A stretch of DNA of 64,000 bases from Barnesiella sp. GTDB lineage: Bacteria > Bacteroidota > Bacteroidia > Bacteroidales > Barnesiellaceae_A. The notes under the pieces are model-generated. The model made no database searches and had not been told where the DNA came from. It worked only from the letters and a program-made list of their open reading frames with translations. The number at the start of each line of letters is the position of its first letter. Positions within the stretch are counted from its first letter, which is position 1. A program made the translations under genes and the position numbers. The stretch lies in NCBI GenBank assembly GCA_045645425.1, contig JAZRIS010000026.1, forward strand, positions 3,785-67,784, given 5' to 3'. Of this stretch, positions 7,010 to 63,878 are shown in pieces.

Positions 7010-8230
7010 TTATTGATTGAGGATTTTTATCTTGCAAGGTGTTTCCAACTCCTTGCGCCATGCCACAACATGTGCAAACCACTCTTCACTGCTTTTATAC
7101 CCGAAGCTCTCTTTCATTGAAGTAAAGGTAATGTAGTAACGGATAGATGTTGCACCCGGACTACTTACTTGATAGAGGTAGTTGGCCTTGTCTTTCACCT
7201 CGCCAATGATTATCTCTTGGGGTAGGCAGGTGGCCAATCCTACTGTTTCTTTGGCATATTTGATGGTATCATTTACGGGCCAATCTGTTCCCCAGCAGGC
7301 TATCAAACCACGATTGTCACTCATGCTCACCGAGCCTTTTATATCCTGTACTCCGGTGCAGAATATCTCATTGCCCAATGGTTGCGAGAAGATAACATCT
7401 ACTTGCACATCACGATGTTGGCCATACAGTGTGTATCGACAATTCATGTCAAGAAGTTTGCCATTGTATTGCCAATCTTCTACTGCCATCTCGACAATCG
7501 TGCGTATGGGGCCGTAACTTACTATTGTGGCACGACGGTTGCCAACGGGGTCTATGTGTGTGGCTTTTTTCTTTTTCATATCCCAGCCTTTGAGTGTGCC
7601 CACACCGCAACTACCGCTCACGCGCAGTACATCGTCGCCATAGCCTTGTGCCAACTGCTCGTCGTTGGGATACCATCCACTTGGCCCAACCTCAAATCCG
7701 GGGTTAAACTTGCCATATATATCTACCGTTTGTTTGCGGTCGAAGTAGATGCGATAGGCTACCAATTCGCTCTCGAATGCAGGGCCATGATGATGCAGAT
7801 AGTTGTATAAATCGCCTGTTGGCGATGCTATATTGTTGATGGGTGCATGCGGTCTTTTCTTGCTTTTGGTGGCAACGAGCATGTCGGCATATACTTGTGC
7901 CGGGTAGCGGTTGGGCGATGTTGCGGTGTCGCTCAATGCAATGTGTGCCACAATAGTCGATTGTGGTGCGATGTCGATGAGGAATGCTAATTCATCGGCT
8001 CTTTTATCTCCATCAAGGTCGTCTGTTTGAGAGGGTATCTCAAGGTTGTCGATATATACTGTTGCCGATGCAACCTCGATAGGAGCCTCTATCTCGTCGA
8101 TTGCTATTGTTATAGGCACCGCAGTGCGGGCTATATTCATTGTATTGGTTATTTCGATGTCTATGTTGTGTGTTGTGGCAGTTGCTATCAGTGCCACAAA
8201 GTACATGGTGAGTGAGAGCAATCTTTTCAT
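7010..8230 (-). CDS. DUF4861 domain protein (pectin-utilisation associated, function unknown)
   Basis: 406 aa with a signal peptide. The GPAFESELVAYRIYFDRKQTVDIYGK segment resembles the DUF4861 core. It lies directly downstream of the GH28 gene. Confidence 0.55.
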   Translation of the reverse strand: MKRLLSLTMYFVALIATATTHNIDIEITNTMNIARTAVPITIAIDEIEAPIEVASATVYIDNLEIPSQTDDLDGDKRADELAFLIDIAPQSTIVAHIALSDTATSPNRYPAQVYADMLVATKSKKRPHAPINNIASPTGDLYNYLHHHGPAFESELVAYRIYFDRKQTVDIYGKFNPGFEVGPSGWYPNDEQLAQGYGDDVLRVSGSCGVGTLKGWDMKKKKATHIDPVGNRRATIVSYGPIRTIVEMAVEDWQYNGKLLDMNCRYTLYGQHRDVQVDVIFSQPLGNEIFCTGVQDIKGSVSMSDNRGLIACWGTDWPVNDTIKYAKETVGLATCLPQEIIIGEVKDKANYLYQVSSPGATSIRYYITFTSMKESFGYKSSEEWFAHVVAWRKELETPCKIKILNQ

Positions 8231-17943: not shown

Positions 17944-18567
17944 TCAGAATGTGATACCGAGATTGAATCCTATGTTGTTATATCCGTTGATGTCATATAC
18001 AAGGCATTTTGTTTGATTGGTTGAGTAACTGTAATACAAACCCAAGTGTATGCCGGTGCGATTGATAGATGAGGGGAATATAGATACTCCTACCTCGGGT
18101 TGCACGTTGAAGCCCCACGCCTCGCTATAAAACTCCAAGACACTGTTGGTCGATGACATGCGGGTGTAGTTTGCTCCCAATTTCAATGTTGCATAGGGCT
18201 CAAAAAGGGAGTTCTCGACAAAACGATATTTTACCAAGGCACCAAATGGTATCTGGAAGAGGCTCTGGAGCTGGTCGGTATATAGGTCGCTCGATGACGA
18301 TAGATGTAAAACTTGCGCTTCTACATATTTGTTGTTGGTATGGAATGAGCCATAAAGACCCACTGCTACTTTGGGAGCGACATAAACTCCACTTTCAAAG
18401 TTCATACCCCATCCGCTGGCTGTGTTGGCATAGTCGGTGCATACGGGGGCACTAAATTGCCAGTCGATATTGAAGTAAGTATTTTTGACAAATTGTGCTT
18501 GTGTTGTTGTGGGTATAATGGCGGCGCATAGGAGTAGCGCAATACCCAATATCTTTGTTGCCTTCAT
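17944..18567 (-). CDS. small outer-membrane beta-barrel protein (OmpW/OmpA-barrel-like), copy 2
   Basis: 207 aa with a signal peptide ending in AQ. Shows an alternating hydrophobic strand pattern and the terminal beta-signal ...GFNLGITF. Confidence 0.6.
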   Translation of the reverse strand: MKATKILGIALLLCAAIIPTTTQAQFVKNTYFNIDWQFSAPVCTDYANTASGWGMNFESGVYVAPKVAVGLYGSFHTNNKYVEAQVLHLSSSSDLYTDQLQSLFQIPFGALVKYRFVENSLFEPYATLKLGANYTRMSSTNSVLEFYSEAWGFNVQPEVGVSIFPSSINRTGIHLGLYYSYSTNQTKCLVYDINGYNNIGFNLGITF

Positions 18568-18602
18568 TTTCTTCTATTTTTTGAGGTATTGTGTATAGTG
18601 GT

Positions 18603-19250
18603 TTATTGTGCTTGCATATAGGGCGATTGTTCAAACGCTTGATAGATACCTGCTATGGCGTGTGAAATGTTGAGTTGGTTGCTCGATTCGGCACCAACCA
18701 TGCAAGCAGTCCATACAAAGGGGAGTTTCTTGTTGGTATGGTCGGCTTTATTGAGAGCCATCATCTCTACAACAAGTGTTCCGGTTGTATATGTGTATGT
18801 TACCGGGTAGGGATAGTAGGGGTACCAGTCGATGTAGTAGGGGTCCCAATAGTCAAAGGGCCAATAATAGTAGAAATCATACCACCAATAGGGGTAGTAA
18901 TAATCGACATAGGTATTGGAACGCTTGACATAGCTGGTTATAATACCCAAGTCGGCTTGTGTGCGGTCATATACCTGTGTGTAGCCGCATCGAGTCATCT
19001 CGTTTGTCAGTACTTCTATGATGTTGCGGGCACGCGGGTCGTTGTCGTCTATATACACCGCCTCTTCTTGGCTGTTATCGAGCAAGAGAATACTATCGGG
19101 GATATAGAATGTATAGTTGTTGCTATAATCAAATTCTTGGTCGTAATGGGTATAAACCAGCAATTCGTTTGAGAGTTTGCCCCAATCCGGCTCCTTTTGG
19201 CAACTTGTGAGAGCTGCTGCAATGATAAGTAGTGTGAGTAATTTTTTCAT
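18603..19250 (-). CDS. DUF4136-like lipoprotein with a Trp/Tyr-rich insert, copy 2
   Basis: 215 aa with the lipobox LTSC and a central YVDYYYPYWWYDFYYYWPFDYWDPYYIDWYPYYPYP segment. An exact caaagata -7 box lies at 19288-19295. Confidence 0.5.
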   Translation of the reverse strand: MKKLLTLLIIAAALTSCQKEPDWGKLSNELLVYTHYDQEFDYSNNYTFYIPDSILLLDNSQEEAVYIDDNDPRARNIIEVLTNEMTRCGYTQVYDRTQADLGIITSYVKRSNTYVDYYYPYWWYDFYYYWPFDYWDPYYIDWYPYYPYPVTYTYTTGTLVVEMMALNKADHTNKKLPFVWTACMVGAESSNQLNISHAIAGIYQAFEQSPYMQAQ

Positions 19251-19507
19251 CTTGTGTGATTATAATATGGTTGTTATGAATGTGTAGCAAAGATAATTTT
19301 AAATTGTCAAAAATAAAATAATAAGTGAAGAAAATTAACAACTATAATAACTCGAATTGTCATTCGGTTTGTGCCTTGTGCTGTTTCGGAGTAAAGTGGC
19401 AGTGTGTATATATAATATCCCATAGCCGTTGCCTCGGCCATGGGATATTGTATTGATAAGGGGTGTATATATTCAATTTATGATGGATATGCTCTTTCTT
19501 TTTGATA

Positions 19508-20134
19508 TCAGAACGAAAGTCCGAGCCTAAATCCTATGTTGTTGTACCCGTCGATGTTGTATATGAGCACCTTGCTCTTGTTGGTGGAGTAGCTATAGTA
19601 TAGGGCAAGGTGTATGCCGGTGCGATTGTAGGGCATAGGGAAGAAACTTACACCAATTTCGGGTTGTACGTTAAATCCCCAACGGTCGTTGTAGTAGCTA
19701 TATACTTGAGTATCGGACTCCATGCGGGTGTACATGGCTCCAAGTTTGACACCGATATATGGCTCGAACATCTCATCTTTGATAAATCGCCATCGCGATG
19801 CTACACCAAAGGGAATTTGAAACAGAGAGTGCTGTTGGTCGGTATAGAGGTTTTCGGTATCGCTCAGTTGCAGTACTTGTTCGCCTATGTACTTGTTGTT
19901 GGTGTGGAACGACATATACAAGCCCAATGACATATTGGGGATAATGTAGTATCCACCTTCAAATCCCATGCCCCATCCGCTTGCAACGTTGGCAAAATCG
20001 TTGCTCACCGGTGCATTAAATTGCCAATCGACAGTCATGTATCCTCCCTTGATAATTTGAGCATTGCTCATCGTGGGTATAAATGTAGCTATTGCAAGCA
20101 ATAGTATTGCTGTTATTTGGGTTATCTTTTTCAT
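19508..20134 (-). CDS. small outer-membrane beta-barrel protein, copy 1
   Basis: 208 aa, a paralog of 17944-18567. It ends ...GFRLGLSF. A hairpin (19417-19450, atatcccatagccg / cggccatgggatat) follows it. Confidence 0.6.
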   Translation of the reverse strand: MKKITQITAILLLAIATFIPTMSNAQIIKGGYMTVDWQFNAPVSNDFANVASGWGMGFEGGYYIIPNMSLGLYMSFHTNNKYIGEQVLQLSDTENLYTDQQHSLFQIPFGVASRWRFIKDEMFEPYIGVKLGAMYTRMESDTQVYSYYNDRWGFNVQPEIGVSFFPMPYNRTGIHLALYYSYSTNKSKVLIYNIDGYNNIGFRLGLSF

Positions 20135-20183
20135 TGCTGTAATTGTTTATAGAGTTAGAGTTTACAATGTGTATGCCCTCTTT

Positions 20184-20843
20184 TTATTGTTCTACACCCG
20201 ACAATAAGTAGGGCGATTGTTCAAATGCTTGATAGATGCCCGTAATGGTGCGGTTGATGTTGAGCTGGTTGCTCGATAATATGCCGGCCATGTATGCTGT
20301 CCATATAACCGGTATTTTCTTGGTAACGGGATTGGCATCTTCGAGAGCAATTATCTCAATAATCAACGAGCCTATGGTGTAGGTGTAGCTTATAGGATAG
20401 GTATAGGAGGGAGTCCAGCCCCACCAATAGGGGTTCCAATAGCTACCCGGCCAATAGTAGTCGTACCCATACCACCAATAGGGATTGGTCGATGCGTAGG
20501 AAATAATGGTATTGGTGTCTTTGACATAGCTCACTTGTATGCCCATGTCGGCATCGGCATTCTCTATTACCTCGACGTAGCCGCGAGTCTTCATTTCGCT
20601 GTTTATGGCATTGATGATAGCGGTAGTGCGAGGGTCGTCGGCGGCAAAATAGGTGGGTTTGCTCTTGTCATCGAGTACCAAGATGCTATCGGGGATAGCA
20701 TAAGTTGCGTACTTGCCAAAGTTGGCATTTTTGTCATGATTGGTATAAACGATAAGATCGCTCGACAATTCGTTGAAGTCGGGATCTTTTTGGCAGGCGG
20801 CGCATGCTGCCACCAAGAGTAGAATGGGAATTACCTTCTTCAT
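20184..20843 (-). CDS. DUF4136-like lipoprotein with a Trp/Tyr-rich insert, copy 1
   Basis: 219 aa with the lipobox AACAAC, a paralog of 18603-19250. Contains PYWWYGYDYYWPGSYWNPYWWGWTPSYTYP. Confidence 0.5.
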   Translation of the reverse strand: MKKVIPILLLVAACAACQKDPDFNELSSDLIVYTNHDKNANFGKYATYAIPDSILVLDDKSKPTYFAADDPRTTAIINAINSEMKTRGYVEVIENADADMGIQVSYVKDTNTIISYASTNPYWWYGYDYYWPGSYWNPYWWGWTPSYTYPISYTYTIGSLIIEIIALEDANPVTKKIPVIWTAYMAGILSSNQLNINRTITGIYQAFEQSPYLLSGVEQ

Positions 20844-35141: not shown

Positions 35142-35180
35142 TGTTGTGTTTGAATGATTACTTATAATAAAATATTGTAT

Positions 35181-36407
35181 ATGAAGCGAATTTTGTTTTT
35201 TCTTGCACTTGTTGCATTGATGCAATCTTGTGTAGATCGCAATGGCGTTGTAGTTGAGGTGCATAATCCTACAACCAAAGTAAGAATGAATGAGATGGTG
35301 GAACTTGACTATTCGGACCTCTTGTCGCGTTTGCAACTTGTTGATACCAATACTGTTGAGGTTCTCGACCATAGTGGTGAACAAGTGCCATATCAGATAA
35401 CACACGACAATAAATTGATTTTTATGCCGGCTCCCATCGAGGCGGGTATGGTGGGTCAATATAGGGTCGTTGAGGGTGAGCCTCAGGCCTATGATGTGCG
35501 TACCGTAGGAGCTCACTATCCCCAGCGAGTAGATGATATTGCTTGGGAGAATGGATGTATTGCATTTCGCACTTATGGCCCTGCCTTGCAGGCTTCGGGC
35601 GAGCGTGCGTTTGGATATGATGTGTGGGTAAAGTGTGTCGATTATCCTGTTGTTGCCGACAGATATGCCGATGAGCTCGATCCAAGAGTTCTTGCCGAAA
35701 TAGAGGAATTTAGGGTTACTGCTCCCAAGGTGGCAGCATCTCTTTATAATACTATTTCGTATCATGTCGATCATGGTAACGGCCTCGATTACTATAAGGT
35801 GGGCCCGACATTGGGTGCAGGTACGGCTGCTTTGCTTGATAATAATGGCGAGATTGTCTATCCCTATTGCTATGAGTCTTACGAGATACTCGACAATGGC
35901 CCGTTGCGATTTACAGTGAGCTTGCGATATGTTCCGTTTATATACAATAACGACACGGTGACCGAGTGTCGTGTCATTACGCTCGATGAAGGCAGTCAGT
36001 TGAACAAAATAAGTATCAAGTACTGTGGTCTTACAGCACAAGCTCCCGTTGTATCGGGCATTGTATTGCATGATGTAGATAGTGTGATGGATTATAGTGC
36101 CGAGGCGCATTATGCCGCCTATGCCGAGCGACCTGACAGTATCAACGGGCAAATGTTTTTGGGCATGGCATCGGCACAGCTGGTGCAAAGTGTGTCGCCC
36201 TGCTATTTTGATGATGCCGAGCGTGCCGATAGAGGTGCCGAAGGACATTTGTTGATGCACTATCTCTATGAGCCGGGCGAAGAGCTTACCTACTATGCCG
36301 GTGCCGGTTGGAGCAAATGGGGATTTGAAAGTGCCGAAGATTGGTTTGTATATATGCGCCATTATAGCGAGGCATTGGCTACTCCATTGCAAGTAACATT
36401 GCGCTGA
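35181..36407 (+). CDS. DUF4861 domain lipoprotein (second copy in the window)
   Basis: Start chosen at MKRILFFLALVALMQSC (lipobox); the ORF track starts at 35154. RVDDIAWENGCIAFRTYGPAL resembles the DUF4861 core. Confidence 0.55.
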   Translation: MKRILFFLALVALMQSCVDRNGVVVEVHNPTTKVRMNEMVELDYSDLLSRLQLVDTNTVEVLDHSGEQVPYQITHDNKLIFMPAPIEAGMVGQYRVVEGEPQAYDVRTVGAHYPQRVDDIAWENGCIAFRTYGPALQASGERAFGYDVWVKCVDYPVVADRYADELDPRVLAEIEEFRVTAPKVAASLYNTISYHVDHGNGLDYYKVGPTLGAGTAALLDNNGEIVYPYCYESYEILDNGPLRFTVSLRYVPFIYNNDTVTECRVITLDEGSQLNKISIKYCGLTAQAPVVSGIVLHDVDSVMDYSAEAHYAAYAERPDSINGQMFLGMASAQLVQSVSPCYFDDAERADRGAEGHLLMHYLYEPGEELTYYAGAGWSKWGFESAEDWFVYMRHYSEALATPLQVTLR

Positions 36408-50449: not shown

Positions 50450-50791
50450 TTACTTTTCTTTTTCTCTTTCGCGAGAGATAGCAATAGAGGTGTATAACTG
50501 CAAGAATGCCGATATGGTGAGTAGTACAATCCAATCGTTACCACCTCTGAACATCAAATGGGATGCAAACAACAACATCAATGTTGCCAACAACTCGATG
50601 AGTACAAGGCGACGCATGCGGGTGTTCTTGCCCTTATAGGGTGTGATGAGGCGTATTACAGACATGCCGGCAGCACCTACTGCAAATATATAGGGTACCC
50701 ATGCTTCAAATACAATGAGAGGTAGTAATGCACCGGCAACCACAAGCATGGCCGATGTCTTGAAAATAATCTCTTTAATATCTATCTTCAT
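50450..50791 (-). CDS. small integral membrane protein (unknown function)
   Basis: About 113 aa from MKIDIKEIIF, with 3-4 TM helices. The longer ORF start at 50842 would overlap the upstream gene. Confidence 0.45.
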   Translation of the reverse strand: MKIDIKEIIFKTSAMLVVAGALLPLIVFEAWVPYIFAVGAAGMSVIRLITPYKGKNTRMRRLVLIELLATLMLLFASHLMFRGGNDWIVLLTISAFLQLYTSIAISREREKEK

Positions 50792-50804
50792 TTCTATACT
50801 CTTG

Positions 50805-51146
50805 TTATTGAATTGTTGTCGTGTCGGTGGGCGACTCAACAATCATGAAAACGTCTTCGTGAGGGCGTTGCATGCCATGCTTTTCGCGTGCAATGCGATT
50901 GATGGTGGCAACATCCGACTCGGAGTTGTTTATCTCTTCTTGAAGTTGCTGTATAGTCGCCTCCTCTTGTGCAATCTCTTGTTTCAATGCTCTTATGTGT
51001 GCATCGTTCTTGCAGATGTCTATATAGCTGTTGTCTTTGAGAATGAACAGATGCCATATAACAAATCCGACTATGAGTGCTACCGAAAGGTATGGGCTGA
51101 TATATTGCTTGATAAAATGCAACGTCTTGGCCAACTTCTCATTCAT
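50805..51146 (-). CDS. septum formation initiator family protein (FtsB/DivIC-like)
   Basis: 113 aa with one TM followed by the leucine-zipper-like coiled coil IRALKQEIAQEEATIQQLQEEINN and ...INRIAREKHGM. Confidence 0.6.
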   Translation of the reverse strand: MNEKLAKTLHFIKQYISPYLSVALIVGFVIWHLFILKDNSYIDICKNDAHIRALKQEIAQEEATIQQLQEEINNSESDVATINRIAREKHGMQRPHEDVFMIVESPTDTTTIQ

Positions 51147-51176
51147 ATCTTCTCTTGTTGTGGATGCAAAACGGTA

Positions 51177-51884
51177 TTACAATAGCAAAGCGTCGTCCTT
51201 GATGTATTGGTCGAGAAATTGGGCTACAAGAATAAGACTGTTGAAGTCTTTCCACTTGATTTTGTTCTCTTTGATAAACTTGTTGAACTCTTTCTTTTGT
51301 TCGCGAGTGAGCAACTCGTTTACACCGCGCTTGGTTGCTTGGCATATTGCACGGTCATTGACAACCATCACGGTGTGGGTGATGGTGGGTATGGGGTTGG
51401 TATTGTATTTGTCCTCGGTCAATTCCTTGAAGCGAAGTACGGCTACTGTGCCATAATCTCTCAACGACGAGAGGTTTTGAGTGGCGGCAGTGGTAGTAGG
51501 TGAGCCATATGCGCCATTGCTGTCGGTGAGCGCATTGAGGTCGCATTCGCATGTTGTACCTATAACGACATACTCTGTTTTATATAGGCAAGTCACATAT
51601 TTATTGCCTCGTCTTATGAGTACGGTTTTGTCTTCGCACACCACCGAGTCAATCTTGTGTTTGTCGCGCACAACCTTTATCTGTACGCTGTCGGTAAAGT
51701 GCAATTCGTTGCTTATGAGGTGCACATTGATATTGGCGCTTTCGGCTTTATTGTCGTTGTAATATACGATAGCGGGTTTGAAGTCGTGGTAGAGGTAAGG
51801 CCATCCTTCGGTAGGCTCATATTCTTTGGAAAATCCTGCAATGGCAGCACCGATAAACAATGCGATGAATATAAATTTTTTCAT
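51177..51884 (-). CDS. hypothetical secreted protein
   Basis: 235 aa with a signal peptide MKKFIFIALFIGAAIAGFS. I recognised no family. Confidence 0.5.
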   Translation of the reverse strand: MKKFIFIALFIGAAIAGFSKEYEPTEGWPYLYHDFKPAIVYYNDNKAESANINVHLISNELHFTDSVQIKVVRDKHKIDSVVCEDKTVLIRRGNKYVTCLYKTEYVVIGTTCECDLNALTDSNGAYGSPTTTAATQNLSSLRDYGTVAVLRFKELTEDKYNTNPIPTITHTVMVVNDRAICQATKRGVNELLTREQKKEFNKFIKENKIKWKDFNSLILVAQFLDQYIKDDALLL

Positions 51885-55896: not shown

Positions 55897-56003
55897 AGGG
55901 TGTGTATATTGAATAGTATTTGTATTATTTTTATGGGGTAGGGGCTATGCGCCATCATAGGTAATGATACAAAAAAAGCTGTCGGTTGTGACAGCTCTCT
56001 TTG

Positions 56004-56086
56004 TGGGCGAAGATGGATTCGAACCACCGAAGGTAAAAACCAGCAGATTTACAGTCTGCCCCATTTGGCCACTCTGGTATTCGCCC
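56004..56086 (-). tRNA. tRNA-Tyr (anticodon GUA), long variable arm, CCA not encoded
   Basis: The reverse complement GGGCGAAUACCAGAGUGGCCAAAUGGGGCAGACUGUAAAUCUGCUGGUUUUUACCUUCGGUGGUUCGAAUCCAUCUUCGCCCA parallels E. coli tRNA-Tyr almost block for block. An exact caaagata -7 box lies at 56097-56104. Confidence 0.95.
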
Positions 56087-57450: not shown

Positions 57451-57594
57451 ATCTTTGTATTATTTTTTTATTCCTTTTTTCAGAATGCTTATTTTTCGAC
57501 CGACAAAAATAACTCTTTTCTTTTGATATACGAAATTTCACGCTTGTTTTTTTGCTTCCAATTTGTTTTTGATGCTTGCGAGGCCTGTTGCGCT

Positions 57595-58071
57595 CTATAT
57601 TTTCTCTTTTTTTCTACTATCGGCACTATGCTGTGAGTTGTGTCTTATGAGTAGAACAATGCTTGTCAGTTGCGAGGCGAGGCAGAGTGTAACGAACAGA
57701 TACTCCCATTTGTGCGGGCTGTCGCCATTGCCCTCGTTGATGGGTATTGCGTAGGGTATGGAGTCGATGATGTGTACCTCCTTGGTGTGTATGGCAACGC
57801 TGTCGCGACGCGGCTCGACGATGAGGGTGTGCAGTAGCGTGCCGTTTGTTACCGAGGCTCGGCTCGACACTCCGTTGCCTTGTAGGAGGCTTGTGGTGTC
57901 GATAGTGTGGTTGTAGTATGCTTCGCCATTCGATATTATTTCTACAACGGTGTCTTTTATCAAGACAACTTCGCTATGATGTCTTTCTGCGGGGATATAA
58001 GTCCTCTTGTTGCAACTTGTTATTGATAATATCATGCTTGCAACGATAGCGAGGTATGGTAGCCATTTCAT
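57595..58071 (-). CDS. lipoprotein with a C-terminal TM anchor (unimolecular-spanin-like architecture)
   Basis: 158 aa with the lipobox SITSC at the N-terminus, a beta-rich middle, a C-terminal TM WEYLFVTLCLASQLTSIVLLI and a basic tail. Its start overlaps the stop of the M15 gene by 4 nt (ATGA). Confidence 0.4.
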   Translation of the reverse strand: MKWLPYLAIVASMILSITSCNKRTYIPAERHHSEVVLIKDTVVEIISNGEAYYNHTIDTTSLLQGNGVSSRASVTNGTLLHTLIVEPRRDSVAIHTKEVHIIDSIPYAIPINEGNGDSPHKWEYLFVTLCLASQLTSIVLLIRHNSQHSADSRKKEKI

Positions 58072-58475
58072 TGGTATAACACCTCCTTTCTGTTTTCTCC
58101 GTTACGCTTGTAGCTCACGTGTATCCATGCCGGTCCCTGTTTGTTGCCTCGTTCCCATATAAGTTGGTCGAAAGGCAGTTTGAGAAGTATCTCAAATAGC
58201 CTTTTGTTCTCGGCCGGATGTCCTGTGTCGATGTCGGCCGCTTCTCCTATGGTGTGCTGGCTGTTATCTACACCTCCTACGCATTTGTTGAGTCGAGGAC
58301 AACGATAGCCACTGTTCACTCTGATGGGCTTGCCCAAGGCTTCGCGTGCGGGGTCAAGAACATGCTCCACCAACGCTTGCAAGTTCTGTATGCACATCTT
58401 GTCTGGCGTGTTGTCGATGTGCAGTTGGCGAGCTACGGCACTGTCGGTGAGTTCTTCGATAATAAAATATTTCAT
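58068..58475 (-). CDS. peptidase M15 (Peptidase_M15_3 / phage endolysin-type cell-wall peptidase)
   Basis: 135 aa. Zn ligand pattern SQHTIGEAADI (H..D) plus WIHVS (H). No signal peptide. Confidence 0.8.
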   Translation of the reverse strand: MKYFIIEELTDSAVARQLHIDNTPDKMCIQNLQALVEHVLDPAREALGKPIRVNSGYRCPRLNKCVGGVDNSQHTIGEAADIDTGHPAENKRLFEILLKLPFDQLIWERGNKQGPAWIHVSYKRNGENRKEVLYQ

Positions 58476-58702
58476 TCCTCGCCTCCTTTCTTGTCGCGAT
58501 GAATGTGCGTGCGAATGCGGTAACTGTAATCGACCCCAAACAGTGCTCCGGCAAAAGTCACCACTTCGCCAAAAGCTACCAATACGCTGTTGTGTATTTC
58601 GCCTTCAGGAGCCACCCAAAATCCCGAAAAAATAAGCACCAATCCCGCCAAGCACATAATGCAAGCGGTGATGAGGTGTATTGTCATTTTGTCTATTTTC
58701 AT
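58472..58702 (-). CDS. holin-like small membrane protein (two TM helices, charged C-tail)
   Basis: 76 aa. TM1 is IHLITACIMCLAGLVLIFSGFWV, TM2 is VLVAFGEVVTFAGALFGV, and the tail is RIRTHIHRDKKGGEE. Its stop overlaps the M15 start by 4 nt. Confidence 0.45.
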   Translation of the reverse strand: MKIDKMTIHLITACIMCLAGLVLIFSGFWVAPEGEIHNSVLVAFGEVVTFAGALFGVDYSYRIRTHIHRDKKGGEE

Positions 58703-58826
58703 TTTGCTACTTTTTTATGCAAATATGTAGTGCCAAAAGTTGTATTTTATGCGATAAAAATAGATTTGGATGAAATATTGTGGTTACAATTTATTACAAT
58801 TACTTGTTTATTAATATTTATATGTA

Positions 58827-58866: not shown

Positions 58867-59670
58867 ATGGGCTTATTTGGTAATAATGATAGCGAATTGA
58901 GAAGCTTTGAGCAGACAATAGAACGCTTGAAAGTGGAGTATGCTGCACTTGAAGACGAAAACCGACGTAAAGATGCCGAAATAGAACGCCTGAAGACAAT
59001 AGTTGAGGGTATGGGTAGCACTCCCGAAGTTGTGGTGCCTGCTCCTGAAACTGTGCCCGCAGAAGAGCCTGTGTCGGGTGTTGATTGTGCACCGGCAATG
59101 GAGGCTATCAACGCATCGCTCAATGAGTTGAAAGAACAAACGCAGGCTCAAAAGGCATTGATGGACGAGTTTAAAGTATTGTTGGGACATCGTGACCGCC
59201 AAGACGAGAACATGCGTGCCATGCACAAGGAGCTGGAACAATATAAGGGCGACTTTTTTGTCAAGATTACACAGCCCTATTTAAAGGCATTGCTCGACCT
59301 CCACGGCCGTTTTTATGGCACATACACCCATTTCGACCAGCTCGACAATGCCGAGTGCGATTGGGCTGAGTTGTATGGCAACCTGATGCGCGAATTTAAG
59401 AGCGCCATTATGGCCCTGAGCGATAGAGCATACAATGACTTTGGTGTAGAATATTATGAGCCGCAAGAGGGTGAGGAGTTCAACCGTAAGTTGCATCAAC
59501 AACTTCAAGGCGACTCGGTAGATACAACCAACCCCGAATTGAATGGCCGCATCGCCAAGGTGGTATGTGGAGGCTTTATCAATGTCGATACCGAGAAGGT
59601 GGTGCGTTATGCACGCGTGAAAGTCTATAAATACACCGAGGCAACACAAACACCCGAAAACAACGAATAA
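58867..59670 (+). CDS. GrpE-like nucleotide-exchange factor paralog
   Basis: 267 aa. It has an N-terminal coiled coil (ERLKVEYAALEDENRRKDAEIERLK) and an acidic/Pro linker. The C-terminal half parallels GrpE: RAMHKELEQYKGDFFVKITQPYLKALLDL; FGVEYYEPQEGEEFNRKLHQ; GRIAKVVCGGF...VVRYARVKVYK. Confidence 0.55.
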   Translation: MGLFGNNDSELRSFEQTIERLKVEYAALEDENRRKDAEIERLKTIVEGMGSTPEVVVPAPETVPAEEPVSGVDCAPAMEAINASLNELKEQTQAQKALMDEFKVLLGHRDRQDENMRAMHKELEQYKGDFFVKITQPYLKALLDLHGRFYGTYTHFDQLDNAECDWAELYGNLMREFKSAIMALSDRAYNDFGVEYYEPQEGEEFNRKLHQQLQGDSVDTTNPELNGRIAKVVCGGFINVDTEKVVRYARVKVYKYTEATQTPENNE

Positions 59671-59691
59671 ACAAATAAAAAATATATAACT

Positions 59692-61284
59692 ATGGCAAAC
59701 GATAAAAGTAGAGCCGTATATGGCATAGACTTGGGTACAACATTTAGTTGTATCTCACAAGTAGATAGATATGATCAAGCAGTGGTACTTCGTAACTTTG
59801 AGGGCGATGCTACCACTCCATCGGTCGTGTACATTGAGTCGGAAAATAACATGATTGTGGGTAAAGAGGCCAAAAACCAGTTGGCTGTCGAGCCCGAAAA
59901 GACTGTTGCCTTTATCAAACGCGAGATAGGTAATGACGAGGCTTTTGACAAGAGCAAGAACACTACTCCCATGCACCTCGACCCCGTTGAAATTTCGGCT
60001 CTTATTCTCAAAAAACTCGTACAAGATGCCAACAACTTGGGCGAAAATCCCGAGCCTATCACCGACGTGGTGATTACTTGTCCGGCCTATTTTGGTAACA
60101 AAGAGCGCTTGCAAACCAAGCAAGCCGGTATCAGTGCCGGTCTTAACGTATTGGCTATCATCAACGAGCCTACTGCTGCCGCTATTTCTTACGGTTTGAA
60201 GGTAGATGAGCGTCGTACTATCCTTGTGTATGACTTGGGTGGTGGTACATTTGACGTTACTATCATTGCTGTCAATGGCGGTGCTATCAAGGTAGTTGCT
60301 ACCGGTGGCGACCACCATTTGGGTGGTGTCGATTGGGATACCGAGTTGGCCAAGTATGTTCTCAATACATTCAACTCGCAAAATGGTACTTCTTACGACT
60401 TCGATTCTCTCTCTCCCAATGCTCGCTATGAACTCTTGCTCAATGCCGAGAACTGGAAGAAGAATCTCACTGCTCGTCAAACCGCCAAAATCAACTTCTC
60501 GTACGAAGGTAAATCGGTTAGCTTTGATCTTCCTCGCGAAACATTCAACGCCATTACCGAGGATCGCTTGAATGAAACTATCGATGCTACTCGCAAGATT
60601 ATTGAAATTGCCGAGGAGAAAGGTTACAAGAAAATAGATGAGATTATACTCGTGGGTGGTAGTAGCAAGATGCCTCAAATCAAGACTCGCGTTGAGGCCG
60701 AGTTTGGCTTGCCTACACACATTACCGACCCCGATGAGTGTGTTGCCAAGGGTGCCGCCATCTTTGCCATGAATGAGGCTTACGATGCAGCGTTGAAGAA
60801 ATCGGAGGAGGAAGGTACAAAAGCTCCCGAACCTCTTATGACCAAACGTACTCGCATTGTCAATGTTACAAGTAAGACCTATGGACTTGGCCTTATCGAC
60901 AACCAAGTGGGTAATATGATTTTTGCCAACACTACCTTGCCGGTGTCGCGTACACGCGTGTTTGAAACCGTGCGCGATGGTCAAACAGGTGTGACACTCC
61001 CCATCTACGAGAGCGACTTTACCGATGAGGAGAAAGACCAAACCGTAGAGGACCGCTTCTGTAACTTGGCTACCGAGGATATATCGGAGTTGAAACTTAC
61101 CGGCAACCATCCCAAAGGTACCGAAATCAAGGTTACGTTCAGCATCAGCGAGGAGGGTATTCTCAGTGTCAATGCTACCCGCGATAGCGACGTTATAGAT
61201 TTCCAATTAAAAGTAGCCGGTGTGAAGAGCGAAGAAGAGTTGAGAAAATCTCAAAACTTCATTGCCAATGCTACTGTCGAATAA
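59692..61284 (+). CDS. Hsp70-family ATPase, short form lacking the helical lid
   Basis: 530 aa with intact actin-fold motifs GIDLGTTFS, DLGGGTFDV and LVGGSSKMP. A beta-sandwich SBD-like region (VTSKTYGLGL...) is present, but the protein ends about 100 aa short of canonical DnaK. Confidence 0.9.
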   Translation: MANDKSRAVYGIDLGTTFSCISQVDRYDQAVVLRNFEGDATTPSVVYIESENNMIVGKEAKNQLAVEPEKTVAFIKREIGNDEAFDKSKNTTPMHLDPVEISALILKKLVQDANNLGENPEPITDVVITCPAYFGNKERLQTKQAGISAGLNVLAIINEPTAAAISYGLKVDERRTILVYDLGGGTFDVTIIAVNGGAIKVVATGGDHHLGGVDWDTELAKYVLNTFNSQNGTSYDFDSLSPNARYELLLNAENWKKNLTARQTAKINFSYEGKSVSFDLPRETFNAITEDRLNETIDATRKIIEIAEEKGYKKIDEIILVGGSSKMPQIKTRVEAEFGLPTHITDPDECVAKGAAIFAMNEAYDAALKKSEEEGTKAPEPLMTKRTRIVNVTSKTYGLGLIDNQVGNMIFANTTLPVSRTRVFETVRDGQTGVTLPIYESDFTDEEKDQTVEDRFCNLATEDISELKLTGNHPKGTEIKVTFSISEEGILSVNATRDSDVIDFQLKVAGVKSEEELRKSQNFIANATVE

Positions 61285-61306
61285 GTAATAATATACCCTA
61301 CCAATA

Positions 61307-61340
61307 GAGGTTGTGTCACTCGTGACACAACCTCATTTTT
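61307..61340 (+). terminator. strong intra-operon hairpin + T-run between the Hsp70-like gene and the 841-aa gene
   Basis: gaggttgtgtcac / gtgacacaacctc (up to 13 bp, tight loop), followed by attttt. It ends 12 nt before the ATG at 61353. Confidence 0.6.
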
Positions 61341-61352
61341 GAATGAATATAG

Positions 61353-63878
61353 ATGGATAAGACACTTCTAAAGCAGAAAATTGCCGAATGGGAGAAGGCG
61401 TGCGACTTCTTTGCATCGCCCGCCATTGCCAAGCAACTTGACAAAGACGAGAAAGAGGCTATTGTGTTCTTATGTAACTTCTGGCGCGATAAAGAGTTTG
61501 ACAAAGAGGTGTGCCAAAAGCGAATAGACCTGCTGAAACATTGCGATAAACTCCACTCCAATAATCGTGAGATTATAGAGAAGAGCAAGACCTTGCGAGG
61601 TATTGCACAGACATTCTATACCAAGGATGCCGCTTCGTTTGACGAGTTTCGCAGGGAATTGGGCTGGACACCCGGCACCAAGAAGACACCTACTCCCGAA
61701 ACAAAGAAAACGCCTGTGCCCACTCCCAAGCCCGACTCTACACCGCAACACGACGAGGCGTTGATTATAACCAATGTACAGAAGTGGTCGCGTTCATTAC
61801 AGTTTCTCAAGAGCGAGGAGATAACACCGCAACTCGATACCGCCGAAATTACTGCCATAGAGGTGTTGAGCGATATGTGGCGACGTCCCACTTTCGATGC
61901 TTCGATGAAAGAGGAGGCTGCCGAGATGGTAAAGGTGTTGGTCAATTCGCACAAACTTCATTCAAATAATCGTGAAATCATCGAGCATAGCAAAAACCTT
62001 TGTGCTGTGGCTCGTAAGATGTATGAGGATAAGAAATCCTTTGATGTATTCAAGAAGGCTCTCGCCGAGTATTATCAAAACAACAAGCCTCCTCGTCGCG
62101 ATATTCCTGTTCCCGAGAAGAAAAAGAAGCCCATACCTCAATCGCCGCATAAAGATAGCGAGTTGATTGTACGCGATGTGCTCTTTGCCGATACTACATA
62201 TAACAACGAGATTATTAAGGACTTTGGTAGGGTACTCTTTACCAATACGCAATATATAGTGCCCCGCTTGTCGGTATCGAGCGACTACTATGGTACCGAG
62301 ACGATTGAGATTATCTTGAAGTATCCCAATGGCGAAACTTGCAACTATGATACCGAAGTAACATTCAACGGTAAGGGCGATTATACATTGTCGGGCTGGG
62401 GTAGCAAGAGTGGTACGTCGTATGCTTCATACGGTTATGTCGAATATACTTTCAAGTGCAAGGGTAAGAAATTGTGGCAGGGTCGTGTGACAATAGGTCG
62501 CGACGCTAACAGTCCCCGCTTGCCCGAAATTTCCACTGTCAAGTTTGGTGCAGTAGATTACGATGGCAATATCAAGGTGAACTTTGGCTCGCCTATTCCC
62601 ACCGGTATTCCCTACTTGAAGCCTCGTATTGTGGTGTCTAACAACTTCCGTGGTGCGGTTACTATCGATATAACCTTTGAATATAAAGATAGGGCTACCG
62701 AGCGTACATCGAGCGATATAAGCATACAAGGCCCCGGAGAATATAATTTGACGGGATGGGGTCGTCGCGATTGTACATCATGGACCAAGAACGAAACCGT
62801 TAAAATCACCTTCAGTTGTGAGGGTAAGGTGCTCTATACCGCACAAGTGAAGATAGGCTCAGGCAGTGGCTGGGGCCCTAAAAAGACCAATAAGACTCCC
62901 TACCGACGCAGTAGTTCGGGCGACTCGTTGTGGGCTCGCTTTGATGACAAGATAAGATCGATAGGCGATAGCCTTGAAGATAGCAGTGAAACAATCACCA
63001 GTATCCTATCGTTCCTTCTTTTCATTATCTTGGTTGTCGGTGTGATATTTGAGTGGATAGATGAGGGATTTGGGGCTGCTCTATTGACCGGTGTGATAGG
63101 CTTCATCATACTATCTATTATTATAGCTGTCATGAGTTATATTATGCCTTTGATAGTATATGTACTGCGATTGGTATTTAAGAATGCTTGGACATTCCTC
63201 ATTGCGCTTATTCTTATCTTTGGCCCATCGATAGCCGGCATTGTGACAGGCGTGGCCAAAGGTGTATTTACTCGTAATGCAAGCAACTTACCCGCCATAG
63301 AAGAGATAGCAACTTCTACTACAACAACCTACTATTGCATTGCCCAATCGGGTGTGAGGGTGCGCCAAGAGCCCTCGGCAAGTGCTGCACAGTTGGGTGG
63401 TTTGCAATACAATGAAGAGGTAGAAGTGTATGAAATAAGAGATGGATATGCCCGCATAGATTATTACGGCAATGAGGCCTATGTAAGCAGCCGTTACCTT
63501 ACCATGGTAGAGGGTGAAGAATTTCTGAAAGAGAATGCTTCTCGCAAGGGCGTTGTGACCCTCAAAAGTGGATTGCAGTATGAGGTGTTGGAAAAGGGTA
63601 AAGGGAAAAAACCTGCCGAGAATAGCGATGTTTTGTGTCGCTATAAGCTCTCGCTGCTCGATGGTACAATAATTGATGATACCTTCTCATCGGATCCTAT
63701 CAAGCTCAATTTGGGAGGTACGATAAAAGGATTTCAGCAAGGTGTGCAGTTGATGAAGGAGGGAGCCAAGTATAAGTTTTATATCCCTGCTTCACTCGCT
63801 TATGGAAGTAAGTCGGTAAGAAATATTCCTGCTCATGCCACGCTTGTTTATGAAGTAGAGTTGGTAGAGGTGTTGTAG
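61353..63878 (+). CDS. multidomain membrane protein: 2 helical repeats + 2 beta-rich repeats + TM bundle + SH3b-like domain + FKBP-type peptidyl-prolyl isomerase
   Basis: 841 aa. The helical repeats share KLHSNNREIIE.SK.L. The beta repeats share G.Y.L.GWG...F.C.GK.L....V.IG. Hydrophobic segments span aa 547-636. The SH3b-like segment is YYCIAQSGVRVRQEPS...EVYEIRDGYARIDYYGNEAYVSSRYL. The FKBP domain is SGLQYEVLEKGKG...IKGFQQGVQLMKEGAKYKFYIPASLAYG...LVYEVELVEV. Confidence 0.7.
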   Translation: MDKTLLKQKIAEWEKACDFFASPAIAKQLDKDEKEAIVFLCNFWRDKEFDKEVCQKRIDLLKHCDKLHSNNREIIEKSKTLRGIAQTFYTKDAASFDEFRRELGWTPGTKKTPTPETKKTPVPTPKPDSTPQHDEALIITNVQKWSRSLQFLKSEEITPQLDTAEITAIEVLSDMWRRPTFDASMKEEAAEMVKVLVNSHKLHSNNREIIEHSKNLCAVARKMYEDKKSFDVFKKALAEYYQNNKPPRRDIPVPEKKKKPIPQSPHKDSELIVRDVLFADTTYNNEIIKDFGRVLFTNTQYIVPRLSVSSDYYGTETIEIILKYPNGETCNYDTEVTFNGKGDYTLSGWGSKSGTSYASYGYVEYTFKCKGKKLWQGRVTIGRDANSPRLPEISTVKFGAVDYDGNIKVNFGSPIPTGIPYLKPRIVVSNNFRGAVTIDITFEYKDRATERTSSDISIQGPGEYNLTGWGRRDCTSWTKNETVKITFSCEGKVLYTAQVKIGSGSGWGPKKTNKTPYRRSSSGDSLWARFDDKIRSIGDSLEDSSETITSILSFLLFIILVVGVIFEWIDEGFGAALLTGVIGFIILSIIIAVMSYIMPLIVYVLRLVFKNAWTFLIALILIFGPSIAGIVTGVAKGVFTRNASNLPAIEEIATSTTTTYYCIAQSGVRVRQEPSASAAQLGGLQYNEEVEVYEIRDGYARIDYYGNEAYVSSRYLTMVEGEEFLKENASRKGVVTLKSGLQYEVLEKGKGKKPAENSDVLCRYKLSLLDGTIIDDTFSSDPIKLNLGGTIKGFQQGVQLMKEGAKYKFYIPASLAYGSKSVRNIPAHATLVYEVELVEVL

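Follow-up and report, generated by a model that had tools for sequence, protein, structure and literature searches.

In a 64-kb window of a Barnesiella sp. genome (the whole stretch of 64,000 nucleotides analysed here, from contig JAZRIS010000026.1), three short genes on the minus strand at 57595–58702 have the composition of a bacteriophage lysis module. Our preferred interpretation, which we consider probable though well short of certain, is that they form a complete holin-endolysin-unimolecular-spanin cassette derived from Bacteroidales phages, captured once by the ancestor of an uncultured, ruminant-gut Bacteroidales clade, and inherited vertically since then as a stand-alone, host-controlled transcription unit. 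The three genes are of phage ancestry and have intact catalytic and topological features; they occupy a fixed chromosomal position, are under purifying selection and have diverged together with genes of the host. Ancestry and selection are thus well supported, and they mark the locus as a domesticated lysis cassette rather than decaying debris. The bacterium probably keeps it for self-controlled lysis or release of cell contents.

The three open reading frames (ORFs) encode proteins of 76, 135 and 158 amino acids, hereafter p76, M15 and p158. The first (58472–58702, minus strand) specifies a holin-like protein with two transmembrane (TM) segments, predicted to adopt an N-in/C-in hairpin with a charged C-terminal tail. 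M15 (58068–58475, minus strand), the start of which overlaps the p76 stop, encodes a zinc metallopeptidase endolysin of the Peptidase_M15_3 family and LAS superfamily that lacks a signal sequence, and p158 (57595–58071, minus strand), the start of which overlaps the M15 stop, encodes a lipoprotein that resembles unimolecular spanins. Both junctions are 4-nt ATGA stop/start overlaps, exactly as described in the original prediction, which had been made from this DNA alone and which had likened the trio to a phage-type holin, M15 endolysin and unimolecular spanin; homology and gene context in real phages now support that comparison. The same three ORFs and both overlaps recur at all eight syntenic loci described below, and hence the arrangement is not due to chance.

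M15 matches Pfam Peptidase_M15_3 (PF08291) with an E-value of 6e-16 (58.9 bits against a curated gathering cut-off of 23.2) and PHROG 894, annotated 'endolysin', with an E-value of 9e-36; NCBIfam yielded nothing informative for it. Its zinc ligands H74, D81 and H119, in the motif SQH74-x6-D81 ... H119, are invariant across 12 homologues together with an SGYR motif, and the protein has no N-terminal hydrophobic segment and no signal sequence, so the enzyme family, the H..D...H ligands and the missing signal that had been read from the translation all hold. A profile search ranked the zinc D-Ala-D-Ala carboxypeptidase 1LBU as the closest solved relative, with Hedgehog N-domains next, which places M15 in the LAS superfamily. 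M15 shares 51–58% identity with endolysins from Bacteroides phages and crAss-like phages, where a small ORF likewise has 4 nt in common with the start of the endolysin gene. With its catalytic residues in place and no secretion signal, M15 is, by sequence, an intact Peptidase_M15_3 endolysin, and it is predicted to be muralytic. Two of the crAss-like phages, cr52_1 (L001) and cr125_1 (L003), have small ORFs near the endolysin that contain in-frame stops under translation table 11. Stop-codon recoding is known in some crAss-like phages and would fit these stops, which leave the holin and spanin candidates of both phages unreadable.

The description of p76 as a two-TM protein with a charged tail is corroborated by hydropathy, which places hydrophobic segments at about residues 5–33 and 39–58 ahead of the tail, and by an AlphaFold2 (AF2) model with helices at 5–30 and 36–71 (pLDDT 68). 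No Pfam, NCBIfam or PHROG family scored above threshold, and a p76 profile found no meaningful match in the PDB; a weak Pfam match to PF20712 (CyanoTRADDas_TM, E 0.004) fell below the cut-off and was not used. The family is nonetheless large, with more than 657 homologues in Bacteroidales, and it occurs in 76 GenBank phage records, for example Porphyromonas gingivalis phages and Bacteroides phage BT681P3, and in at least 142 IMG/VR contigs. In phages of Porphyromonas and Bacteroides a p76 homologue sits directly upstream of the annotated endolysin. We considered the gene that follows at the 72 IMG/VR loci with a callable p76-family ORF, representative next genes being confirmed by Pfam: it encodes Amidase_2 (37 loci), Amidase_3 (15), M15_3 (3), GH19 (1) or another product (13), and in most cases it overlaps the p76-family ORF by 4–23 nt. 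Holins are classically recognised by their position, as small two-TM proteins encoded ahead of unrelated muralytic enzymes, and overlap of the p76 family with the starts of four unrelated endolysin types is placement of this kind. In its TM segments, its charged C-terminal tail, its position next to an endolysin and the association of its family with unrelated endolysins, p76 has the attributes of a holin, and it probably acts as the holin of the cassette. A dual start of the antiholin type, suggested by the N-terminus MKIDKM, was rejected after the second methionine proved not to be conserved in three of the related genomes (L009, L012 and L013).

Hydropathy of p158 shows a lipobox (ITSC) with Cys20, a C-terminal hydrophobic segment at residues 123–143 and a basic tail, in agreement with the features reported earlier, and these are conserved: Cys20 is invariant across orthologues and distant homologues, and the C-terminal segment and tail are kept in all eight orthologues. 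The AF2 secondary structure comprises a helix at 3–19, five strands across 30–107 and a helix at 121–157, with a low pLDDT of 58.5; neither this model nor that of p76 exceeds moderate confidence. The p158 of the window has no periplasmic cysteine, whereas some orthologues do. It matches no Pfam, PHROG or NCBIfam family and has no detectable homology to described spanins. A word-indexed search returned two matches only and a profile search 11, but the resulting impression of an orphan gene was an artefact of sensitivity, as an exhaustive profile search recovered 741 clusters (representatives at 50% identity), with E<=1e-10 for 205 of these. All three topological features are present in 131 of the top 156 family members. 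These proteins (P0123–P0278) are mostly of 140–165 amino acids, with a lipobox cysteine, a conserved C-(T/S)-K-T-V-Y-V-P-V motif and a C-terminal TM segment.

Members of this family occupy the same place in phage genomes. The distant homologue P0131 (L046) follows a multi-TM holin and an M15_3 endolysin, with a 4-nt overlap, in a module at the end of a prophage beside tail-fibre-like, antirepressor, HTH and integrase genes, and a broad hidden Markov model of the p158 family matches the third cassette gene in 18–23 IMG/VR contigs (1e-13 to 1e-20). A lipobox-type cysteine after a hydrophobic N-terminus, combined with a C-terminal TM segment and basic tail, is found, at 54 of 69 of the IMG/VR loci of the p76 family, in the ORF that comes next; among all 634 ORFs of matched size at those loci, only 55 satisfy this rule. 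A unimolecular spanin is defined by an N-terminal outer-membrane lipoprotein signal, a C-terminal TM domain and a mainly beta periplasmic domain (PMC6139136). With its lipobox signal, its C-terminal TM segment and the position of its family as the last gene of phage cassettes, p158 appears to work like a unimolecular spanin; we do not file it as a member of the gp11 family, to which it has no detectable homology. The p158 family as a whole is a large, unannotated candidate family of unimolecular spanins in Bacteroidota phages.

The absence of a prophage around these genes, also remarked upon at the outset, was borne out. Excluding one ORF (50715–51185), 47 ORFs of the window were run against Pfam, of which six had no match, and no capsid, tail, terminase, integrase or repressor family was found among the 47. 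The matches are restricted to housekeeping and envelope families: the end of rpoC, fumarase, a nucleoside symporter, YidC, pyrG, outer-membrane proteins, a capsule locus, subunits of oxaloacetate-decarboxylase type, purH, mreB-mreC-PBP2-rodA, GrpE-like and Hsp70-like proteins and an SH3/FKBP membrane protein, besides the named genes for an M16 peptidase, a nitroreductase and ribH. The G+C content of the cassette (0.47–0.51) equals that of its flanks, and a repeat scan around it detected short chance matches only, with no att-like direct repeats. The single Rfam family between 55 and 60 kb is a tRNA-Tyr at 56003–56086, separated from the cassette by a TPR-protein gene and ribH (TPR-ribH); no riboswitch or leader was found by Rfam in that interval, and no transcription-factor gene adjoins the cassette. 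With no phage family among these ORFs and a conserved housekeeping synteny, the cassette is not encoded within a phage or prophage genome.

Conservation at this position was assessed by scanning species-representative genomes with the neighbouring TPR protein, which identified six ruminant-gut metagenome-assembled genomes (MAGs) with TPR proteins 71–87% identical. In all six, p76-M15-p158 stands immediately upstream of TPR-ribH, and a metagenome contig that is 96–98% identical (L004) has the cassette at the same locus; there are eight syntenic loci or genomes in total, six of them different species representatives. The original prediction was to count as refuted if relatives carried these genes only inside intact prophages, and the outcome is the opposite, the cassette being conserved at one and the same non-prophage locus. 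More distant Bacteroidales with TPR-ribH do not possess it. Upstream, the cassette is bordered by a divergent GrpE-like/Hsp70-like operon in five MAGs, as in the window, and by an M16 peptidase gene in the sixth (L013), so that the constant partner is TPR-ribH. All 24 cassette ORFs are intact and both 4-nt overlaps are present at all eight loci. Pairwise dN/dS values, which are rough, lie at 0.04–0.13 for p76, 0.04–0.16 for M15 and 0.12–0.37 for p158, compared with 0.04–0.13 for the flanking TPR and ribH genes. Mantel tests correlate the distances of the cassette genes with flank distances (r 0.78, 0.95 and 0.89; p<0.001), and the eight syntenic M15 sequences form one clade apart from phage and Parabacteroides copies. 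Monophyly of M15 and co-divergence with the flanks indicate a single capture followed by vertical descent.

Upstream of p76, at 58718–58756 on the minus strand, is a promoter-like element, TATCGCA-N22-CAT(A/C)TTTGCA followed by TAAAAA, the two blocks of which are invariant and spaced by exactly 22 nt at all eight loci; the motif is intact even in L013, despite its different upstream neighbour. The -7 box of Bacteroides promoters has the consensus TAnnTTTG, and the usual -33 element is TTTG. The second block matches the -7 consensus at seven of eight positions and ends 17 nt before the p76 ATG, whereas the first, TATCGCA, is unlike the usual -33 element, which suggests that a special factor may act here. 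Within the 64 kb the pattern occurs once, as does a relaxed version of it, and we regard TATCGCA-N22-CATnTTTGCA as the putative private promoter of the cassette. A sigma-70 and terminator scan, which does not model Bacteroides promoters, returned sites at no more than chance expectation. TPR-ribH has a conserved, canonical-looking promoter of its own between p158 and TPR (TTTCG-N21-TA(A/T)TTTTG), which makes the cassette a separate transcription unit. The intergenic block at 57451–57594 (minus strand), upstream of TPR (YfgM-like, TPR_21) and ribH, is itself conserved in L004 and L008–L013 and contains a canonical TAnnTTTG box: GCGCGAAATTTCGTATATCGAAAGAAAACAATTAATTTTGTCGGTCGAAT. Its conservation goes far beyond what a promoter needs, and it may also hold a regulatory site.

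Taken as a working lysis module, the cassette would operate as follows. The dedicated, non-canonical promoter would hold back transcription of the operon until a specific signal is received, or would confine it to a subpopulation of cells; on the resulting tricistronic mRNA, the translation of p76, M15 and p158 would be coupled through the two ATGA overlaps. p76 would build up in the inner membrane as a two-TM hairpin and open holes, through which the cytoplasmic M15 zinc peptidase would pass to cut the peptide stems of peptidoglycan. p158, linking the outer membrane through its lipidated Cys20 to the inner membrane through its C-terminal TM segment, would then disrupt or fuse the outer membrane after the peptidoglycan had been cut. 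These three steps are modelled on the canonical lysis pathway (PMC6139136, PMC10865782). The outcome would be regulated lysis of the expressing cell and release of proteins, DNA and vesicles that benefit its kin, as in a lytic type 10 secretion system (T10SS). A module that is lethal to the cell expressing it, and yet subject to long-term purifying selection, implies restricted expression with a benefit to kin.

Several observations weigh against capture and domestication as set out above. Synonymous divergence is saturated for most species pairs, which is why the dN/dS values are rough, although pN is far below pS throughout. All of the relatives are MAGs or metagenome contigs, and the AF2 model of p158 is of low confidence. 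No cargo, regulator or toxin gene is linked to the cassette, the only constant neighbours being TPR-ribH, which have their own promoter. Furthermore, contig L047 matches L011 at 98.6% identity from nt 674 onwards, but p76, M15 and the opening ~50 codons of p158 are absent from it; this represents either a real strain-level loss, in which case the cassette is dispensable there, or a chimeric assembly. In its first 1,000 nt (L047 1–1000) the missing part is replaced by unrelated sequence, which creates a hybrid ORF with a new lipoprotein signal. The phage derivation of all three genes, the loss of most of the cassette from L047 and the lack of linked cargo or regulator would also suit a neutral leftover of a decayed prophage, that is, three genes useless to the host that happen not to have been deleted so far. 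We nevertheless judge this highly improbable: ORFs, overlaps and promoter motif are intact in eight genomes despite near-saturated synonymous divergence of the flanking genes, pN is far below pS in every gene, divergence follows that of host genes, and no other phage genes or pseudogenes were found nearby. A prophage remnant, which would be expected to have such genes nearby and to be under relaxed selection, is not what the cassette resembles. The original prediction had offered a decayed prophage remnant as one possible origin; this stands as regards where the genes came from and falls if neutral decay was meant. A domesticated module, which it had offered as another, is favoured by purifying selection, by co-divergence with the flanks and by the conserved private promoter.

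If the cassette is indeed maintained by selection, purposes other than the release of contents for kin should be weighed. A non-lytic role in the envelope, with M15 serving in peptidoglycan remodelling, vesicle formation or protein export and with p76 and p158 as gate and tether, without cell death, seems unlikely to us; holin-dependent translocation of proteins without lysis has been put forward for several systems (PMC9527704), the lysis module of DLP12 modulates vesicle production in E. coli (PMC7918800), and the rod-shape (elongasome) genes mreBC-PBP2-rodA are situated 7–13 kb from the cassette, but this last is a matter of loose proximity, the three proteins are full-length equivalents of those of lytic phage cassettes, and lytic action has been demonstrated for the archetypal T10SS, that of Serratia (PMC10847048). 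That the host fires the captured cassette early in phage infection, bursting before phage progeny mature, we regard as distinctly improbable. Heavy phage pressure on gut Bacteroidales and a host-controlled, lytic, tightly conserved module, with a non-canonical promoter that might need a specific signal, would be in keeping with such abortive infection; against it, PADLOC matches neither the cassette nor its neighbours, there is no linked sensor gene, and the surroundings are housekeeping genes and not a defence island. We are equally doubtful that the cassette releases a phage-derived particle encoded elsewhere (a tailocin, gene-transfer agent or satellite), in the manner of Pseudomonas pyocin lysis genes. 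Phage-tail-like weapons served by separated lysis modules are known (PMC7815802), and our inspection covered 64 kb of this genome and up to 10 kb of flank in relatives; there is, however, no structural phage gene in the window or the syntenic flanks, and no shared regulator motif elsewhere in the window.

Capture and host-controlled retention of a lysis cassette therefore remain our preferred explanation, and the adjoining chaperone-like genes do not appear to be part of it. It had been suggested that the cassette might be the effector arm of the neighbouring chaperone-like system, but this is not supported: in L013 the cassette adjoins the M16 peptidase gene instead, and PADLOC has no match. 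The divergent operon in question (58867–63878, plus strand) encodes three proteins: one of 267 aa that is GrpE-like, a short, 530-aa Hsp70-like protein lacking a full lid, and a membrane protein of 841 aa that combines SH3_3 and FKBP domains. The operon adjoins the cassette in L004, a close relative, and in all of the six related MAGs except L013, and PADLOC has no match for it. Two further features of the window are unrelated to the cassette: tandemly duplicated pairs of OMP_b-brl and DUF4136 lipoprotein-like genes at 17944–20843 (minus strand), and two DUF4861 paralogues at 7010–8230 (minus strand) and 35154–36407 (plus strand), one of them beside a GH28 gene.

Elsewhere in Bacteroidales, the p76 family was found in phage or prophage contexts (L043–45, L050–51 and L132) and in three further contexts that are not phage, namely Parabacteroides timonensis, Parabacteroides goldsteinii and one metagenome contig. 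In Prevotella-type prophages L043 (8677–10228) and L050 (6680–8246), the p76-like gene comes directly after an RVT_1 reverse-transcriptase gene, which seems to belong to a diversity-generating retroelement. About 4 kb separate the p76-like gene of L043 from the M15_3 endolysin, showing that the holin-like gene is not always adjacent to an endolysin. In each of the three non-phage contexts (L038 9510–11107, L048 7547–9077 and L133 8546–10117), a gene for an HU-HIG DNA-binding protein is followed by a p76-like gene, an M15_3 gene and a gene for a ~150-aa protein with a lipobox-type signal and a C-terminal TM segment. HU-HIG genes are almost entirely without conserved operonic links according to the paper that defined them (PMC5499826), and their linkage to a lysis trio may be new. 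The Parabacteroides cassettes share with that of the window the architecture of the trio and non-phage chromosomal surroundings, and differ in lying at other loci, in always having the HU-HIG gene ahead, which the window cassette lacks, and in an M15 that falls on a separate branch, which suggests independent capture. An eight-sequence profile of p158 detected no homology with the third genes of the Parabacteroides cassettes or of Bacteroides phage BS-TP2, architecture alone being common to them. On this basis we put forward, as a tentative possibility that we do not yet favour, that stand-alone holin/endolysin/unimolecular-spanin cassettes are a recurrent, independently domesticated feature of gut Bacteroidales, with at least two captures (in this clade and in the HU-HIG-linked Parabacteroides). 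They might constitute the Bacteroidota version of the T10SS, in which a subpopulation of cells, upon a host signal, would burst and so release public goods, DNA or vesicles; a dedicated non-canonical promoter would drive this, with no cargo gene linked to it.

Proteobacteria and clostridia are known to use captured phage genes for programmed lysis, by which toxins and enzymes are released, and we found nothing comparable for Bacteroidota in the literature searched. Bacteroidota dominate gut communities, in which the release of vesicles, DNA and enzymes shapes cross-feeding and host signalling, and a vertically conserved cassette with a recognisable promoter offers a testable handle on regulated autolysis. 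Probable roles can, in addition, be assigned to two large unannotated families, p76 and p158, which belong to the lysis module of many Bacteroidales phages, so that the annotation of gut phages stands to improve.

Among known systems, the T10SS is the kind closest to the window cassette. In the systems of Serratia marcescens (ChiWXYZ) and Yersinia entomophaga (YenLC), as here, a holin, an endolysin and a spanin are clustered outside any phage and conserved in the chromosome, and ChiX, the endolysin of the Serratia system, likewise belongs to the M15 kind of zinc peptidases. Clusters of holin, endolysin and spanin genes outside phages act as lytic T10SSs in a subpopulation of cells (PMC10847048), and regulated lysis or release would likewise be the likely outcome for the window cassette. 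The cassette has the clustering outside a bacteriophage by which a T10SS is recognised, and departs from it in linkage: the known systems have adjacent cargo (chitinases, Tc toxin) and a dedicated regulator (ChiR, RoeA), and the window cassette has neither. Its spanin is unimolecular instead of an i-/o-spanin pair, no homology is detectable between its components and those of known T10SSs, and no description of a T10SS in Bacteroidota was found in the literature searched.

The lysis cassettes of Bacteroidales phages and prophages (Bacteroides phage BS-TP2, P. gingivalis phages, IMG/VR contigs and L046) have gene order and overlaps in common with the window cassette, as well as the p76, M15_3 and p158 families; what sets the latter apart is its phage-free surroundings, fixed position, host-type private promoter and vertical inheritance. 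With T1 gp11 (Kongari et al. 2018, PMC6139136), p158 shares a lipoprotein signal, a C-terminal TM domain and its place as the last gene of the cassette, and by a low-confidence model its periplasmic domain may be beta-rich like that of gp11, although PHROG and Pfam detect no sequence similarity between the two, and the spanin role of p158 is a predicted one. DLP12 of E. coli K-12 (essD-rrrD-rzpD/rzoD) provides a parallel for phage lysis genes retained in a chromosome with a proposed benefit to the host, for example through vesicles or biofilm (PMC7918800). DLP12 genes, however, reside within a recognisable defective prophage in one species, whereas the window cassette stands free of other phage genes and is carried by several species.

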